Shown in pieces: positions 20,900-32,000 of a stretch of DNA of 32,000 nucleotides. This stretch comes from Promethearchaeota archaeon (lineage in GTDB: Archaea; Asgardarchaeota; Hermodarchaeia; Hermodarchaeales; Hermodarchaeaceae): assembly GCA_048938295.1 (NCBI GenBank), contig JBHLMI010000007.1:1-32000 (forward strand). The letters run 5' to 3'. Under the pieces are notes generated by a model, which had not been told where the DNA came from, ran no database searches, and was given only the letters and a program-made list of their open reading frames with translations. Within the stretch, counting starts at the first letter, position 1. Every line of letters starts with the position of its first letter. The position numbers were made by a program, and so were the translations under genes.

Positions 20900-22089
20900 G
20901 GAAAAAGCCATTGCCACAGAATATCTCCGTCACGGGAAACCATGCGGCTGCGTGGGCAGCACGTACTGCAGAACCGGCAGTGATTGCGGCCTATCCCATC
21001 ACGCCACAGACTACCATCGTAGAAAAGATCGCTGAATTTGTTGAATCTGGTAAACTCAACTCCGAATACGTCCGCGTTGAATCCGAACATAGTGCAATGG
21101 CTGCCTGCATCGGCGCCTCCGCACTAGGACTTCGAACCTTCACCGCCACCGCATCACATGGACTCGCCTTAATGCATGAAATGCTCCACTGGGCTGGACG
21201 TGCACGCCTTCCCGTTGTCATGCCCGTGGTCAACCGCGCCTTAGGACCCCCTTGGAATATTTGGACCGACCACACCGACACCATGGCAACCCGTGATACT
21301 GGCTGGATCCAATTCTATGCCGCAAATAACCAGGAAGTCTATGATACGGTCCTCATGCTTTTCCGCCTCTGCGAAGACCCTAGAGTTCTCATCCCGGGCA
21401 TGGTAGCACTCGACGCCTTCATCTTAAGCCACACCTTCATGAACATCGAAGTCTATGAGCACGACGAAATTACCGACTTCCTCCCCAACTATGAAGCAGG
21501 ACACTGGAAACTAGACCCCAAAGATCCCATGGCCTCCGGCAACATCGCTGGTCCCGAATACTACTATGAGCTCAGCTACGCCATCCATGAAGGGTTTGAA
21601 GCCGCCCGAAAACTCATACCCAAAGTCGAAGCCGACTTCAAAAAACACTTCGGCCGCGAACACGGCGGCTTCATCGACACCTACCAATGCGACGATGCCG
21701 AAGTCATCCTTATCGCCATGGGCACCATGGGCGAAGAGGCACAACTCGCCGTAGAAGACCTGCGCACTGAAGGCATCAAAGCTGGATCCGCACGACTCCG
21801 CATCTTCCGTCCCTTTCCAGCCGAGCAACTTCAAGTTCTCGCCCGTAAAGCCAAAGCCCTCGTCGTCGTCGACCGCAGCCTCTCCTACGGTCACTTAGGC
21901 GCCGCGGCTACAGAAATCCAATCCGCCCTCAACCGTGGCAGAATCACAACGCCTGTGCAAGGCGCCATAGCAGGTCTAGGCGGTCGAGACGTCACCTTCA
22001 AAGACCTGGAACAGCTCTTCAACATCGGCTTCGAAGTCGCCGACAAAGGCGAAGCCAAACCCAACATCTTCTATGGACTCAAAAGGTGA
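20896..22089 (+). CDS. porA: Pyruvate/2-oxoacid:ferredoxin oxidoreductase alpha subunit
   Basis: GNHAAA, AYPITPQT, ESEHSAM, TATASHGL and GLGGRDV. Confidence 0.95.
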   Translation: MRKKPLPQNISVTGNHAAAWAARTAEPAVIAAYPITPQTTIVEKIAEFVESGKLNSEYVRVESEHSAMAACIGASALGLRTFTATASHGLALMHEMLHWAGRARLPVVMPVVNRALGPPWNIWTDHTDTMATRDTGWIQFYAANNQEVYDTVLMLFRLCEDPRVLIPGMVALDAFILSHTFMNIEVYEHDEITDFLPNYEAGHWKLDPKDPMASGNIAGPEYYYELSYAIHEGFEAARKLIPKVEADFKKHFGREHGGFIDTYQCDDAEVILIAMGTMGEEAQLAVEDLRTEGIKAGSARLRIFRPFPAEQLQVLARKAKALVVVDRSLSYGHLGAAATEIQSALNRGRITTPVQGAIAGLGGRDVTFKDLEQLFNIGFEVADKGEAKPNIFYGLKR

Positions 22090-22095
22090 AAAGAA

Positions 22096-23004
22096 ATGGT
22101 TGCAATCAAAGATATGCCCCGAGAAGAATTCATTGAACTTGGTCACGCCGCCTGTGCTGGCTGTGGCGCCACCATCGCCATCCGCCACGCCCTCAAAGCC
22201 CTAGGCGCTAACACGATTCTAACTGTGCCAGCCTGCTGCATGTCCGTCATCGAAGGCCTCTACCCCAAAAATGCCCTCAACCTACCTGTTCTCAACACCG
22301 CCTTCATGACCGCCGGCGCTGCGGCATCAGGAATCGCCGCCGGTCTCAAATACATGAACAAAGCCGATGAAATCAATGTCATGGCCTGGGCCGGCGACGG
22401 CGGAACCTATGACATCGGCATCCAATCCCTCAGCGGCGCCGCCGAACGCCAAACTAACTTCATCTACACCTGCTACAACAACGAAAGCTATGGGAACACC
22501 GGGCAACAACGTTCTGGGGCTACACCTTATGGGGCGTATAGTACTACGACACCAATTAAGGGGAAGCAGGAGCACCGTAAACCCTTTGCGCGGATTATGG
22601 CGGAGCATGGAATTCCGTATACTGCATCGATTTCTGCAGCGTATCCGCGGTTGGTTTTCGATACTTATTCCAAAGCGAAGGATATGGTTGGGACACGTTT
22701 CATTGAGGTTCATGCGATGTGTCCAACCGGATGGCGGGTTGCCACATGGGATAGTGTCAGATTTGGAAAATTAGCTGTTGAAACTGGTGTGTGGATTATG
22801 TGGGAGAAAGAGGGTGAGGAATGGCGATTTCTTGGGCACAGTAAGCGGATTGCCGAGGGGAAGGTGGAGCGGAAGCCGTTGATGGACTATTTGAAACCGC
22901 AGGGTCGGTTCCGTACACTGGTGAAGTATCCTGAGCACGTAAAGGAATTTGAACGTGGTATCGATCATGAGTGGGAAATTTTGAAGAAGCGTGTGGGCTG
23001 TTAG
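22096..23004 (+). CDS. porB: Pyruvate/2-oxoacid:ferredoxin oxidoreductase beta subunit (TPP-binding)
   Basis: GHAACAGCG, GDGG...NN TPP motif, YGNTGQQRSGATP and CPTGW. Substrate specificity (Por vs Vor) cannot be fixed from sequence alone. Confidence 0.95.
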   Translation: MVAIKDMPREEFIELGHAACAGCGATIAIRHALKALGANTILTVPACCMSVIEGLYPKNALNLPVLNTAFMTAGAAASGIAAGLKYMNKADEINVMAWAGDGGTYDIGIQSLSGAAERQTNFIYTCYNNESYGNTGQQRSGATPYGAYSTTTPIKGKQEHRKPFARIMAEHGIPYTASISAAYPRLVFDTYSKAKDMVGTRFIEVHAMCPTGWRVATWDSVRFGKLAVETGVWIMWEKEGEEWRFLGHSKRIAEGKVERKPLMDYLKPQGRFRTLVKYPEHVKEFERGIDHEWEILKKRVGC

Positions 23005-23032
23005 ATACTAACCATATATGGTGTTATGAAAG

Positions 23033-23407
23033 GTGACGATAGAGTTTGTAGAAGAATCAGTAGAGGTTGGAGACCTACGTATTGCAGTAGCGATTTGTAG
23101 TTTAGCAAATGGATCGTTAGTATTGGTTAGTGATGGGGAGCAGCGGTTCGGGACAATAGCAGTGGGGGTGCCAAGTCCATTTAGCGACGTGTCACCAGTA
23201 GCGACATCCTGTGTAGTGGGAACGCGGTTTCAAGCAGAGACGCGAGCGATTGCGGATATAGCTGCACAAAAGCTGGGTGGGATTGTCGTAGTGAATTTAT
23301 TCTTATCACGTGAGCATGAGGGAGAGGTGGGTGCAGTGTTGTCAGCCGTGCGATCGGTACTGTTGGAGATGGAGTCGCGTACAAGCGATTCGCCACAGGT
23401 AGGCTAG
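23033..23407 (+). CDS. Probable proteasome assembly chaperone 4 (PAC4)-like protein
   Basis: 124 aa; beta strands, GTIAVGVP, then a helix (RAIADIAAQKLG) and IVVVNL, resembling the PAC4 fold. Recognition by eye only. Confidence 0.5.
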   Translation: MTIEFVEESVEVGDLRIAVAICSLANGSLVLVSDGEQRFGTIAVGVPSPFSDVSPVATSCVVGTRFQAETRAIADIAAQKLGGIVVVNLFLSREHEGEVGAVLSAVRSVLLEMESRTSDSPQVG

Positions 23408-23477
23408 TTCGGAGTGGTTATAAGTTAGAGGTTTCCCTGTTTGTAGTAGAATACGAGAATGCTTGGAGGTTGTTTAG

Positions 23478-24740
23478 GTGGTTCAAGAGCGCTGGGGTTT
23501 CATTAAAGACCCATTATATGGATACGTGGCGTTTACACCCTTGGAAAAGACTGTGATTGATACCCGGGTGGTGCAACGGTTGCGTCGATTACGACAGTTA
23601 GCTGGTGCAGAGTTTGTTTATCCTGGGGCGAATCATACCCGGTTTGAACACAGTGTGGGGGCAATGCATCTAGCCGGCATCATGGCTGAAAACATTACGG
23701 AGGATAATATGGAAGTTCAAATGTTGCGGTTGGCGGGCCTGTTGCATGACATCGGCCATGGACCATTTAGTCACATTTTCGAAGAAGTCCTAGCGAAACG
23801 AGAGCAAAATCATGAAGATATTACAACCTGGCTTGTGAATAATACTGAGCTAGCTGATATCTTAAGAGATGGTGGAGTAGATCCGATAACTCTGAGTCAG
23901 CTCGCTGTGGGAAAATGGGAGAAAAGTGGACGATTATATCTCAATCAGGTTATTCGCAGCTCAGTTGATGTTGATAAGTTAGACTATATTGTGCGTGATT
24001 CGTTTCACACTGGGGCTGAGTATGGTAGTGTCGATGTATTTCGACTGATTTATACTACCGAGCCGTTTCAAGGTAATTTAGCGGTGAATACAACGGCTTT
24101 ATCGACTCTGGAAGCCTTTCTGATTGCCCGGGTGCTTAGTTTCCGCAGTATCTATTATCATAGGGTGTGCCGAGGAGTCCAACGGATGTTAACTAATGCT
24201 TTAAAGTTGGCTGATGAAGAATTGGGATTTTCGTCTTTTAGTACTCCAGAGGAATACTTGTCAATGGATGATTACGTAATCTGGGCAAATCTTAGGAAGT
24301 GCAAGGCGTCCCGTCCCATCATGGAACGCCTCGAGCGACGGGAACTGCTAAAATGTGCATACACTGTCGAATCCATCGTACAAGATCATCCGACGGTCGA
24401 CTTGTTAGATAAAGAGAGCGTGCGAACGCAAATTGAACAAGAAATCGCAAAAAAGGCAAAAGTGCCTATAGAAGAAGTTCACTTGGATTCTCCGCTACTC
24501 CCATCAGTTCCGTATCGTCATTCGTCTCAGCTAGATCCGATGAAGATTCCTGGGTTCGCCTATGTTGGCAAGAAGAAGATTGCCGTCGATCTCGTTGAAC
24601 TTTCTCGTGTAATCTCGTCACTGAAAGGTTATCTTGATATTATCCGTGTTTATACAACCTCGGCTTTCCGTAAACGCGTCGGAAAAGCAGCACAGGAAAT
24701 CTTGGGTGGTACTCCTTACGTTTCGGGTATTTCGATGTAA
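23478..24740 (+). CDS. HD-domain phosphohydrolase (SAMHD1/COG1078-like)
   Basis: IKDPLYG, QRLRRLRQL, NHTRFEHSVG, LLHDIGHGPFSH and DVDKLDYIVRD; GGAGG SD upstream. Confidence 0.93.
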   Translation: MVQERWGFIKDPLYGYVAFTPLEKTVIDTRVVQRLRRLRQLAGAEFVYPGANHTRFEHSVGAMHLAGIMAENITEDNMEVQMLRLAGLLHDIGHGPFSHIFEEVLAKREQNHEDITTWLVNNTELADILRDGGVDPITLSQLAVGKWEKSGRLYLNQVIRSSVDVDKLDYIVRDSFHTGAEYGSVDVFRLIYTTEPFQGNLAVNTTALSTLEAFLIARVLSFRSIYYHRVCRGVQRMLTNALKLADEELGFSSFSTPEEYLSMDDYVIWANLRKCKASRPIMERLERRELLKCAYTVESIVQDHPTVDLLDKESVRTQIEQEIAKKAKVPIEEVHLDSPLLPSVPYRHSSQLDPMKIPGFAYVGKKKIAVDLVELSRVISSLKGYLDIIRVYTTSAFRKRVGKAAQEILGGTPYVSGISM

Positions 24741-28495: not shown

Positions 28496-31400
28496 TTACG
28501 GACTCTTGGTTGTAAACTGCTTTAGGGTGGATTGCTGATCAACCTCTTCAGATGGGAAGATGGAATTGATTACCCCTTTGGCTATCTCAAGCCGCTGTTT
28601 ATAGTATAAGGGTAATTGATAGTCTTCTACAATTTGGGAGGCTAAATCTACGTACTTGGTGATTCCAGCTTTGGTCACCGTTAAAACGAGTTTTCCTGAG
28701 CATGCAGGACACCGCCCGGTTAGGGGGATACGACGATATTTCTCGTTGCAACTTGTACAGCGAAATTGTTGCGAGGCAAATGCGCGGATATTTCCAAAGA
28801 TGTCGGGAAGGAAATGGGAATCGAGGAGCCGCCGGGCCATGTCCTGGACATCCACCGCGGCTATGCGCTTGCCCAAGGCTAGTTGCCTTTTCACTTTCTC
28901 TTCCATGGTCTTCAGTTTCGTATAAGTGGTAACGCGAGGACCGTAATTCACGTTCCTCGTCGGATGAGAAAACTCTAGCCCGTATGACTCCGCTGTGGCC
29001 TCAATGCGATGATCGACAATCCGGTGCGCCACCAAATCGAAGATGTCCTCAACATCCTTTGGATCAACAAACTGCCTTGCCTTTTCATAAAATTCCAACG
29101 GATAAATCCCATTTCCATCAATGTTATGCGCTTCATCATCGATCTCCTTCGGCGTAATCGACACACTCAACACCAACGGCGTATCCATCGACCCACCACG
29201 CGACGTCGGCAAATACGCCCGCGAAAAATTCAACATCGAATCAAGCGCCAACAACACACTATCCTCATCACCGTCGCAATTCCCAGTTAAACAAATAGAT
29301 GTATGTATATTCTTATAATGATAATTTTGAGCATCCTTAGGGATGACGCTTAGGCAATATGAAGGCATTTCCCTGTTTAGTACTTGAATTTTTGCCACTG
29401 GATCAAGAACGATTTTCGACCTACCTTCTAATACGTGTCGGGTTCCAATAGATGTTCTAATTATTCGTTTAACTGGAACCCCCTTGGATAAAATTCTTTG
29501 AGCGTTTTCTCGCCGTTTTGGGTGCATAAGCGTTAATCTTTCAAGAATTAGAAGATCAGGACCTCTAACGGAAATTCTGTGTAATATTTGATTTTTCGGT
29601 TTTTTCCCTAGTTCCTTGTATCTAGCTAGAACCATTGGACCATATCGTCCGGGTGAAGGATCTTTCCGGAGCCTATAGAATACTCCAAGAGTGCTAAGTA
29701 GAAGTCCAATATCACTAAGCAGTTTTTGTGAGACTGAATAGAATAGAATACAGCTATCTGTTGAAGGGATGCTTCCATCACCATCAATATAGGCGGAAAG
29801 AAAGTCTAGCTTTGACTTTTCATCTAATGAATAAATAAAATCAGGAATCCTTTTGCTATAAGCGTTAGTCCCCATTTTCCACGCGTATGCGAGGAGGTAG
29901 GCGTGGATGCGTCCGGTGTGGACGAGTTGGTGGTTGTCGTGTGTGTAGTAGGGGTCTGATCCGAGGACGGTTTGGATGAGGTGTCGGAGGTGTGTTCGTA
30001 GGGTGGGGTGGGGGACGCTGAAGTTGGTTTGGTAGCAGGTGGGTTCGTCGCGGATGTAGCCTTCGGCGACATAGTAAGCAAGCAGTCGTACGAAGTTTGA
30101 GTTGAATGGGATGTAGGGGGTGATAGTGTGGTCATCGCGGGCCATGCCAATTTGCGCGGTAGAAGGAATGTCGTTCCATTGGAAGACGCCTTCGTGTTCG
30201 AGGATTTCGAGGTGAGTTAGGGGGATGGAAGTGTACCACGCCTGGGTGAAAAGGCGAGTTTTGCGTCGACGAGGAATTTGGTTGGCGAAGTAGTGTTGGA
30301 GTATTTTGTTAATTTTTCGTGGACCGAGTGGGTCTGATGGATTGAGAGAGTGGGCGAATCTGTGGAGTGTTTTTCGCATCCAGGTTTCGGCGTTTCTGAG
30401 CCTGGTTTGGTGTTTGAAGGTTTGGAATTTTTCAGTGTTTGGTAGGTTGTCAGTAAGTTCTTGAAGGATATTGATGGTTTGGGGAGGATTTCTTTCAGGA
30501 ATGTTAATTGTATTGAGAATAGGGATCTGATCGCCGGGTTTGAGTTGGTGGGCTTTGGTGCGTTCGATGGTTTGCGTAGTGGGGTTCCAGATCATGGCGT
30601 TGTGGTCGGGGGTCATGGTGATGGTGCGTCCGGAGTGGGTGGTGATTGTGAGCCAGTGGTTGCTGGTGCCTTTGATCCAATGTTTGATGGGTTGGTAGAT
30701 GGGTTCATGGGTGGTGGGGTCGATACTGATGGTTCGCCAGTGAGTAAAGGGATTATCGATGGCAAGTGTCCCAAAGTCATCGACAATCTTGGCTGGTGTT
30801 CTCTTTTCTAAGAGTTCTTCAACGATATGGCCTAATGGGAGTTTGAGAAGTTTTTGATCATTAGTATCCCAGATGATGACCTCTTCATCAGCGTGGAGGC
30901 AGTTGCGACGTTTTGCGGCGTGCCAGAATGGGTGTGCGTAGCAGACGCGTAGGGGTGTGAAGCCGATGATGCGGCCGATGACGCCGGCTGAGGTGTGGGG
31001 GGCGAGGCCGATGACGAGGTGTCCTATGAGGTCTTCGGGGGTTTTGAGGTTGTAGAAGGGTTCTAGGTCGTAGACTTGGCTGAGGAGATCGTCAACGAAG
31101 TGGGATATCCGGAAGAGGTATTTTGCGCAGTCAAAGGGAACAACGATGTCTTGGATTTTGAGTTCGATAATTTGATTAGGGGTAGTAAGGGGTGCGCCGG
31201 TTTTGTCAAAATGATATCCAAGAGCATGGAGTGTGTCGAGTGACACGCTGATTTCGCTGGGTTTGAAGTGAGTAAGGGGTGCGTCAGTCATATCGAACCG
31301 GATGGTGCCATCTTTGTAGACGAAGAGATCATATTTTGCACGAAGTATCGCTTTTTCGAGGATTTCGGGGGTTTTATTTTTACTCATCAACCCTTTAACG

Positions 31401-32000
31401 CCTTTTACCCGGCTTGGTAGTTTTTGGCCTAATTTATTACGCGTATGTTGGAGTTCCTTTTTGAGTGGCGAGTCGATGGGTCCATATGTATTTGCCTCAG
31501 CTCCACATCGCGCACATTTCGGGGTTTTGCATTCGGCTTTGCAGATTGGGCACCAGTAGGTTTGTTCGGTTTCAATCTGACAACTTGAACAGATTCGTGC
31601 GAATGTGATTGTACCACATCGTGGACAAAGACGGTAATTGGCTTCGACTTCCACTTTCTTTTGCTTCTCCGCTTTCCGGATATCTCTCATTGAACCTCCA
31701 GCATTTCCAATGGGATATATCCCATGGGGGGGCGGTGACATTTGCCGCCGTTTAGCCTTTTCAGGACGTCCGATCCGTGCACCAATATAGAAGGTCCCCT
31801 TGGGATGTATCTGAATTGACCAGTTATTTTGTAAGTAATCTAAGGCATCAGTCTCATCAGGCTCAGGAGCAGCAAATTTACATTTGTTGGGCCCGATAAA
31901 CATGGCATGTAGAATTGGAGCGGCTTCGTCAAACCAAATTTGTTGCTCTTGGCACTTACAAGGAATGCCAAGCGTTTCAAGGATCTCTTCGATTCCATCA
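28496..32000 (-). CDS. polC: DNA polymerase D large subunit DP2, 5' part outside the window, intein-containing
   Basis: Frame open to the window edge; IGARIGRPEK, Zn-finger CxxC cluster, KGVKGL, DGTIRFD, GLAPHTSAG, KRRN|CDGDED, RGGSMD and C-terminal CTSC..CPAC. Confidence 0.97.
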   Translation of the reverse strand, partial: DGIEEILETLGIPCKCQEQQIWFDEAAPILHAMFIGPNKCKFAAPEPDETDALDYLQNNWSIQIHPKGTFYIGARIGRPEKAKRRQMSPPPHGIYPIGNAGGSMRDIRKAEKQKKVEVEANYRLCPRCGTITFARICSSCQIETEQTYWCPICKAECKTPKCARCGAEANTYGPIDSPLKKELQHTRNKLGQKLPSRVKGVKGLMSKNKTPEILEKAILRAKYDLFVYKDGTIRFDMTDAPLTHFKPSEISVSLDTLHALGYHFDKTGAPLTTPNQIIELKIQDIVVPFDCAKYLFRISHFVDDLLSQVYDLEPFYNLKTPEDLIGHLVIGLAPHTSAGVIGRIIGFTPLRVCYAHPFWHAAKRRNCLHADEEVIIWDTNDQKLLKLPLGHIVEELLEKRTPAKIVDDFGTLAIDNPFTHWRTISIDPTTHEPIYQPIKHWIKGTSNHWLTITTHSGRTITMTPDHNAMIWNPTTQTIERTKAHQLKPGDQIPILNTINIPERNPPQTINILQELTDNLPNTEKFQTFKHQTRLRNAETWMRKTLHRFAHSLNPSDPLGPRKINKILQHYFANQIPRRRKTRLFTQAWYTSIPLTHLEILEHEGVFQWNDIPSTAQIGMARDDHTITPYIPFNSNFVRLLAYYVAEGYIRDEPTCYQTNFSVPHPTLRTHLRHLIQTVLGSDPYYTHDNHQLVHTGRIHAYLLAYAWKMGTNAYSKRIPDFIYSLDEKSKLDFLSAYIDGDGSIPSTDSCILFYSVSQKLLSDIGLLLSTLGVFYRLRKDPSPGRYGPMVLARYKELGKKPKNQILHRISVRGPDLLILERLTLMHPKRRENAQRILSKGVPVKRIIRTSIGTRHVLEGRSKIVLDPVAKIQVLNREMPSYCLSVIPKDAQNYHYKNIHTSICLTGNCDGDEDSVLLALDSMLNFSRAYLPTSRGGSMDTPLVLSVSITPKEIDDEAHNIDGNGIYPLEFYEKARQFVDPKDVEDIFDLVAHRIVDHRIEATAESYGLEFSHPTRNVNYGPRVTTYTKLKTMEEKVKRQLALGKRIAAVDVQDMARRLLDSHFLPDIFGNIRAFASQQFRCTSCNEKYRRIPLTGRCPACSGKLVLTVTKAGITKYVDLASQIVEDYQLPLYYKQRLEIAKGVINSIFPSEEVDQQSTLKQFTTKSP
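29279..30901 (-). mobile_element. Intein with LAGLIDADG homing endonuclease in PolD DP2, 541 aa
   Basis: Inserted at the KRRN|CDGDED site; starts CLHADEE, block B TPDH, endonuclease blocks LLAYYVAEGY and FLSAYIDGDGS, block F YCLSV, ends TGN followed by Cys+1. Confidence 0.95.

Follow-up and report, generated by a model that had tools for sequence, protein, structure and literature searches.

Genetic repeats with intense nucleotide skews (GRINS), described in bacteria and chiefly in Streptomyces polyketide synthase genes, carry intense and correlated GC and TA skews that change abruptly, are strongest at codon position 3 and recode the protein toward Pro, Thr, His and Gln in regions of negative skew (Nivina et al., 2021; PMC8256042). 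By definition they exceed 500 bp in length and match another repeat copy of their cluster at more than 80% identity; they have been linked to gene conversion, and their cause is given in the published account as unknown (PMC8256042). Here we describe skews of comparable intensity in an archaeon. The DNA analyzed (the window) comprises the first 32,000 nucleotides of contig JBHLMI010000007.1 (C47 in our labeling) of GCA_048938295.1, a metagenome-assembled draft genome of a Promethearchaeota archaeon (2.52 Mb, 66 contigs, 45.8% G+C). Among public records, the closest polC counterpart comes from a Candidatus Hermodarchaeota metagenome-assembled genome, likewise of an Asgard archaeon. The gene in question is polC, which encodes the large subunit of archaeal DNA polymerase D and is interrupted by an intein. 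Upstream of this intein the silent sites of the polC coding strand are nearly saturated with A and C, and downstream of it with G and T. We regard it as an even call that this inversion represents mirror-image scars of recurrent break-initiated gene conversion beside heterology boundaries; that a recombination-linked, strand-biased process of some kind operates at such boundaries we consider likely.

GRINS are the closest published parallel to the polC skew arms. As in GRINS, polC shows correlated G+T versus C+A skews, abrupt changes, concentration at the third codon position and recoding of the protein. Mean absolute GC and TA skews exceed 0.15 over more than 500 bp (29700-31350), and the correlated skews are strongest at third positions, with a position-3 keto skew (G+T versus A+C) reaching -1.0 and +0.87. 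Unlike GRINS, the polC arms are archaeal and single-copy, and they flank a homing site as an ordered, mirrored pair separated by a neutral insert. More specifically, a blastn search of 28800-31500 against the whole assembly matched only the region itself, so that no other region of the cluster or genome with more than 80% identity was found; partners of the polC arms are known only as alleles in other genomes.

Several other known systems share part of the pattern. During intein homing, co-conversion copies flanking markers of the donor. The polC locus resembles this process in having a LAGLIDADG intein at a conserved catalytic motif, empty and occupied sister alleles, recent transfer between species and flanking tracts of a few hundred bp, and it differs in that the flanks carry a strand-specific scar in base composition. 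In the searchable literature we found nothing relevant about strand skew next to inteins or genes for homing endonucleases. GC-biased gene conversion favors G and C equally on both strands; polC resembles it in a silent-site shift confined to putative conversion tracts and acting like selection, and G+C at third codon positions (GC3) is raised in its arms, whereas the main axis in polC is amino versus keto with a sign set by the side of the break. Strand-coordinated mutation clusters and replication GC skew likewise switch polarity at a defined point and enrich one strand in G+T, but deamination of tails is expected to give the opposite polarity and replication skew is weak and chromosome-wide, whereas the polC arms are near-saturated and shorter than 1.5 kb. 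Finally, the mismatch endonuclease NucS/EndoMS cleaves G/T, G/G and T/T mismatches and hardly A/C, C/C or A/A (PMC4838380; PMC6159521), a blind spot that matches the winning bases on the 3'-tail strand of polC. NucS is known for replication-error correction and for restraint of homeologous recombination (PMC4838380; PMC6159521; PMC5290159). No paper ascribing a compositional footprint to NucS was found in our literature search, and the link made here is correlative.

The polC open frame extends over 28499-33574 of the contig, with its C-terminal two thirds inside the window. Below, G000 designates the source genome and other G numbers its relatives, and L numbers designate polC alleles (L002 from G001, L074 from G004, L017 from G011, L019 from G017, L078 from G215). 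The features of the locus are as follows.

28496..32000, minus strand: polC, encoding DP2, the large subunit of archaeal DNA polymerase D (Pfam PolC_DP2_cat, 1.9e-128; PolC_DP2_central, 6.5e-35)
29279..30901, minus strand: LAGLIDADG intein of 541 aa within the PolD catalytic motif at RRN/CDGDED (Pfam Intein_splicing, LAGLIDADG_3 and Hint; junctions mapped)
30902..31400, minus strand: N-extein arm, coding strand A/C-rich at silent sites (position-3 skew)
29884..30901, minus strand: intein arm (codons 1-339), A/C-rich (position-3 skew; maximum-likelihood change point at codon 339)
29279..29883, minus strand: neutral C-terminal intein module, AT-rich at position 3, carrying LAGLIDADG motif 2 and the C-terminal splicing block (G+T at position 3 0.50, GC3 0.27)
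28880..29278, minus strand: C-extein arm, coding strand G/T-rich at silent sites (position-3 skew)

The Hint splicing domain of the intein lies in frame in the conserved host motif, with Cys1, the C-terminal Asn and Cys+1 present (RRN/CLHAD...LTGN/CDGDED). Both LAGLIDADG motifs (...YYVAEGY... and ...AYIDGDGS...) retain acidic residues (Pfam LAGLIDADG_3, 3.4e-8). On sequence grounds, the splicing domain, the LAGLIDADG pair and the existence of empty and occupied alleles identify this element as a homing-endonuclease intein, for which endonuclease activity is predicted.

An initial annotation of this DNA had proposed a skew inversion centered in the intein, and the base counts on which it relied are exact: on the plus strand, 29161-29220 holds 26 C and 10 G, and 29941-30000 holds 27 G and 6 C. 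The plus strand has a GC skew of about -0.29 over 28950-29400 and of +0.29 to +0.55 over 29700-31350. The AT skew has the opposite sign to the GC skew (mostly -0.1 to -0.38 over 29700-31350), and the axis of the skew is therefore G+T versus A+C. The codons quoted in the annotation are indeed the last of the N-extein (HAAKRRN, ending at 30902) and the first of the C-extein (from 29278). Counted on the coding strand, G+T makes up 0.13 of third positions across the last 100 codons of the N-extein, 0.23 across codons 1-340 of the intein and 0.50 across its codons 341-541, and then 0.81 across C-extein codons +5 to +104 (N-extein versus C-extein, Fisher p=3e-23). The inversion holds when synonymous sites alone are considered, as the change of sign between the N and C sides is present in every synonymous class, transversions included. 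At four-fold sites of the coding strand, the last 100 N-extein codons have C at 0.65 and G at 0.02, and the first 50 C-extein codons have G at 0.83 and no A or C. NNY codons end in C in 89% of cases on the N side versus 15% (85% T) on the C side, and NNR codons end in G in 0% versus 90%. The corresponding 100-codon skews of -0.76 and +0.60 represent the 0.1% and 99.9% quantiles of 10,400 stretches scored across G000, and GC3 in the arms is 0.57-0.67 compared with 0.44 genome-wide. Weakly constrained codon positions 1 and 2 have shifted along with position 3, and the skewed part of the intein has been recoded to Pro, Thr, His, Gln and Asn (together 37% versus 21% genome-wide). All nine Trp codons of this part and the whole reading frame are intact, and the protein is conserved.

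The skew is organized in three arms, each maximal at a boundary and declining away from it. In 30-codon bins upstream from the N-junction, the N-extein arm measures -0.87, -1.0, -0.53 and -0.27, with position 3 being 87-100% A/C in the final 60 codons and fading over about 240 codons. The skew does not cross the junction at 30901 unchanged, as had been thought: it drops to -0.27/-0.13 with mixed composition in intein codons 1-60, then rebuilds to about 100% A/C at codons 275-339 and stops abruptly at codon 339 (window 29884), over no more than a few codons. A neutral stretch of 605 bp (intein codons 340-541) follows. The C-extein arm starts at 29278, with bins from the junction of +0.87, +0.73, +0.40, +0.33 and 0.0; position 3 is 100% G/T from about the sixth codon for about 45 codons, the arm as a whole is saturated over some 60 codons, and the skew is gone by about codon 120-130. 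The proposed placement of a single flip inside the intein, with the skew strongest near that one center, is accordingly replaced by an A/C arm and a G/T arm separated by neutral DNA and by peaks at three boundaries.

The internal boundary at codon 339 was examined by comparing G000 with its nearest relative, G001, in a 20-codon identity scan. The exteins are 88-93% nucleotide-identical and intein codons 0-320 about 97%, whereas codons 340-541 are only 40-60% identical. Judging from this contrast, the polC intein is a mosaic in which old C-terminal versions have been exchanged at about codon 339. Within the genus the C-terminal module occurs in two very different versions, A and B: the G001 module groups with that of G012 (88-97%), and the G000 module with those of G014, G006 and G008. 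The abrupt end of the intein arm coincides with the breakpoint between module types A and B, which also terminates a block of high identity:

29881..30061, minus strand: high-identity block, intein codons 280-340, ending at the recombination breakpoint (at least 88% nucleotide-identical between nearly all pairs of L001-L005/L009, the six closest alleles)

By the same comparison, the N-terminal two thirds of the intein were transferred between species recently. The high identity between G000 and G001 (window 29941-30901) begins at approximately the N-junction, pointing to recent inter-species transfer of part of the intein only.

Alleles with and without the intein coexist among the relatives. 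The polC site is occupied in G001, G003, G006, G008, G010, G012, G013 and G014, and it is empty in G004 and G011 of the same genus and in G016-G018 of the sister genus, where RRN runs directly into C/A-DGDED. These intein-free alleles carry the same flip exactly at the empty insertion site, at a single codon and without an AT-rich zone. The skews are -0.79 on the N side and +0.82 on the C side in G004 (L074), and -0.5 to -0.9 and +0.5 to +0.7, respectively, in G011, G016, G017 and G018. Altogether, the same arms recur at identical codons in more than 10 genomes that were assembled independently and come from different studies. Across 77 polC alleles from Archaea, strong arms of the G000 polarity are confined to its family; among these alleles, Hadesarchaea, Micrarchaeota and others have no arms at polC. 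Parsimony polarization of the G000/G001 differences with four outgroups gave 30 versus 9, 13 versus 5 and 27 versus 4 changes against the skew, as if it were eroding in all arms. We do not rely on this result because the outgroups have the biased composition too and are saturated, conditions under which parsimony is known to count too many common-to-rare changes.

The polC locus is one of many. G000 carries about 66 strongly skewed patches whose skew is gone within 0.4-1.5 kb, in agreement with the earlier suggestion of a recurring chromosomal feature and not a single replication origin. Minus-to-plus flips outnumber plus-to-minus flips genome-wide by 20:5 at a threshold of 0.35 and by 9:1 at 0.4. 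In the intein genes on contigs C50, C53, C59 and C35 of G000 the flanks are mirrored with the polC polarity and the intein itself is neutral, and altogether the intein bodies are neutral in four of the five skewed intein genes of the genome. At C38:69157 the flip lies in the intergenic DNA of a divergent gene pair and both coding strands are G/T-rich, which indicates that the skew tracks DNA position and not gene direction. At C38:89417 the gene has an A/C-rich coding strand, the reverse of what transcription-linked asymmetry would give. Adjacent minus-to-plus flips in G000 are strongest at C38:69157, C52:23950, C19:4286, C38:89417 and C2:111460.

A further flip lies within the window itself, in porB:

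22495..22500 (22497/22498), plus strand: porB flip point at an empty intein insertion site, Asn134/Thr135 (...YGN/TGQQ...), with position 3 flipping within about three codons

This center had been cited as a counter-example devoid of a homing-endonuclease element. However, the matching porB position holds an intein in G021 (G021:C48, 363 aa), and the same is true of G048 and G049 (range 362-363 aa), so that in G000 the center is an empty homing site and the objection fails. The porB arms (window 21000-24300) are about 1.5 kb each, longer than the polC arms; the left arm spans the porA/porB gene boundary and the right arm passes ORF 23033-23407 into an HD-domain gene.

The arms fall at homing sites and at a recombination breakpoint, species have exchanged sequence at the locus, and G000 and each of its 14 sister species encode NucS. 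Moreover, the A/C-rich strand is the one whose 3' end points at the boundary. A scheme that would connect these observations starts from two heterologies meeting at the C-extein junction, namely the presence or absence of the whole intein (RRN/CDGDED) and the swapped C-terminal module from codon 339. A break at or inside the heterologous segment would be repaired from a diverged allele, with the 3' tail on each side pairing with the donor sequence adjoining the boundary, and mismatches in the resulting heteroduplex would be corrected asymmetrically. A G or T on the tail opposite a donor A/C allele would produce a G/T, G/G or T/T mismatch that is recognized and replaced, whereas an A or C on the tail would produce an A/C, C/C or A/A mismatch that escapes correction. 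Over many rounds, the strand with its 3' end toward the boundary would ratchet to A/C at all free sites. The predicted outcome would be an A/C-rich left flank, a G/T-rich right flank, decay with tract length and a neutral insert. Clipping of non-homologous tails at the boundary may explain why the arms peak there, including at the module boundary. The likely filter would be the NucS/EndoMS mismatch endonuclease encoded in G000; we consider its role in imposing the bias plausible, at slightly worse than even chances. Increased homeologous recombination upon loss of NucS (PMC5290159) and the action of NucS in vivo on mismatches made by recombination (PMC11551744) have both been reported. A MutS_V domain match (G000:C7:34992-35384, 55.7 bits, in a 739-aa frame) exists in addition to NucS and marks a candidate canonical MutS or archaeal MutS-like protein.

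To assess the association with NucS beyond this family, we defined a mirror score as the position-3 keto skew of the C-flank minus that of the N-flank, with values of 0.65 or more counted as strong. At random ORF positions the score has a standard deviation of 0.18-0.21 and reaches 0.65 in 0.2-0.4% of cases. Among 104 inteins from other Asgard families, 12 reach this value and none falls below -0.5. Families f12 and f14 supply these 12, apart from one in f2 and one in f4. All are found in NucS-bearing lineages (12 of 66 inteins), compared with none of 38 where NucS was not found, a group of seven families whose genomes are for the most part 90% complete or better (Fisher p=0.003, Mann-Whitney p=0.003, with kin not independent). 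NucS as a sufficient cause was rejected, since many NucS-bearing families, as well as polC inteins of other archaeal phyla, have no or weak arms.

A number of observations weigh against gene conversion filtered by NucS. The association is confounded by phylogeny, and further traits may be common to the clear arm-bearing families f1, f12 and f14. Arms are missing from many NucS-bearing lineages (f17, f18, f19 and most of f4). NucS was not found in G035, a genome 84% complete, although two of four sampled members of its genus have NucS; scoring G035 as NucS-free gives p=0.16. At four-fold sites of the A/C-rich strand the order is C>A and T>G, which would require better cutting of A/G than of T/C mismatches, opposite to the minor preferences of EndoMS, the Thermococcus kodakarensis enzyme cutting T/C better than A/G (PMC4838380); the NucS account consequently needs an extra weak-to-strong (W-to-S) bias. 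Five occupied haloarchaeal polC alleles (L122, L131, L132, L145, L152; GC 0.63-0.70) have weak mirror scores of +0.35 to +0.42, which might be a weak trace of this mark or else reflect a gradient in codon usage. In G215 (L078:6001, Promethearchaeota metagenome-assembled genome H2M.186) the polC arms are reversed, with +0.40 on the N side and -0.45 on the C side (mirror score -0.85), and NucS was not found in this genome of unknown completeness. The heteroduplex step, the direction of the ratchet and the role of NucS are inferred. The reversed polarity in G215 is that expected from deamination of resected 3' tails; a second reversed case in the same genome was sought and rejected, its other four intein genes being neutral.

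The overlap of the skew with a homing element had led the initial annotation to suggest that repeated cut-and-repair creates it. Flips at empty polC sites and in four other intein genes lend this link circumstantial support, with biased heteroduplex correction a more likely mechanism than damage from the cuts themselves. In its mutational form, the idea holds that cut-and-repair is itself mutagenic in the resected flanks, through error-prone fill-in or extension synthesis or through chemical damage to exposed single strands; the mispairs could be of the G:T type on the strand growing away from the break, or of the A:C type, invisible to NucS, on the strand growing toward it. We consider such a scar unlikely, though it is the most serious of the competing explanations. 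It would produce this polarity and this decay as well, and it is consistent with the tie to homing sites. Mutation clusters coordinated by strand are well established at resected breaks and count in its favor. Replication errors are, in addition, asymmetric, with G/T far commoner than C/A (PMC6159521). However, near-saturation would demand a biased flux at least 20 times background, that is, very many events or extreme mutagenesis in each, and the frame and the nine Trp codons survive; saturation with intact coding capacity favors a selection-like filter over bursts of mutation. Intein bodies are newly synthesized at each homing, yet they are usually neutral, which argues for a process specific to the homologous flanks. 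Mutation pressure also usually lowers GC3, whereas GC3 is raised in the arms, and an amino/keto bias that includes transversions together with raised GC3 fits conversion bias. Three particular versions were rejected: recent random hypermutation, given the intact frame and Trp codons and the concentration of the skew at silent sites; deamination (C to T, A to G) of the 3' tails left by resection, for which the geometry of 5'-to-3' resection predicts the opposite polarity; and an incoming linear fragment with deaminated tails, which has the right polarity but predicts a skew that grows away from the insert, opposite to what is observed.

Explanations without recombination fare considerably worse. 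Local replication initiation, or divergent transcription with R-loops, would expose one strand on each side of a center. In its favor, the minus-to-plus polarity matches that of a replication origin, the neutral zone has a high A+T content (GC 0.38-0.40) and one flip lies between divergent genes. Against this, there are dozens of centers per 2.5 Mb, each fading within the short distances given above, where archaeal origins number one or few per chromosome and have replichore-scale skew; the polC center is inside an ORF, empty alleles flip at a single codon without an AT-rich zone, the boundaries match intein junctions and a recombination breakpoint within a few codons, and the A/C-rich coding strand at C38:89417 runs contrary to transcription-linked asymmetry. 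We therefore consider this origin of the skew very improbable. Selection on codon choice or mRNA structure at splice junctions, for example to pace translation for intein folding, seems just as far-fetched: it gains some appeal from reverse-complement symmetry, by which any flip-containing gene shows A/C-ending codons upstream and G/T-ending codons downstream, but intein-free alleles carry the pattern, arms enter neighboring genes (porA/porB) and begin in intergenic DNA, and weakly constrained positions 1 and 2 shift as well. The draft and metagenomic nature of the 66-contig genome raises the concern of an assembly or binning artefact, or of an imported patch of foreign DNA with odd composition. 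This is the least credible explanation of all: an artefact is excluded by the recurrence of the arms in more than 10 assemblies and by the single-copy state of the region, and the frame is intact and the protein conserved.

Biased gene conversion at heterology boundaries, if correct, has several implications. Silent-site composition would record the position and polarity of recurrent recombination-initiating breaks, including presently empty homing sites, and such sites and cassette hot spots could be mapped from a single genome sequence. It would represent a strand-asymmetric form of biased gene conversion able to recode weakly constrained protein. It would also offer a first mechanistic lead on intense amino/keto skews, GRINS among them, and it makes a clear prediction that nucS mutants of tractable archaea and actinobacteria could test. 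In a broader and more tentative version, which we consider somewhat doubtful, mirror arms would be a general footprint of repeated recombination initiation beside heterology in NucS-bearing archaea, written by the NucS blind spot; the C-terminal third of the intein would be a nested swappable cassette with its own arm, and the same process would also explain bacterial GRINS. For annotation, local skew flips in these genomes should not be taken for origins.

The splice junctions of polC vary among alleles. The intein of G000 terminates in ...LTGN (window 29279-29290) compared with the usual ...HN, the penultimate His being replaced by Gly in the G000 allele group, and other polC intein alleles terminate in VFQ, VAQ or IAN. 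On the extein side, the +1 Cys required by the intein is replaced by Ala (RRN-ADGDED) in the intein-free alleles L017 (G011), L019 (G017), L089, L095, L107, L126, L134, L136, L146 and L147, a substitution that could make the polC site unusable or uncuttable for the intein.

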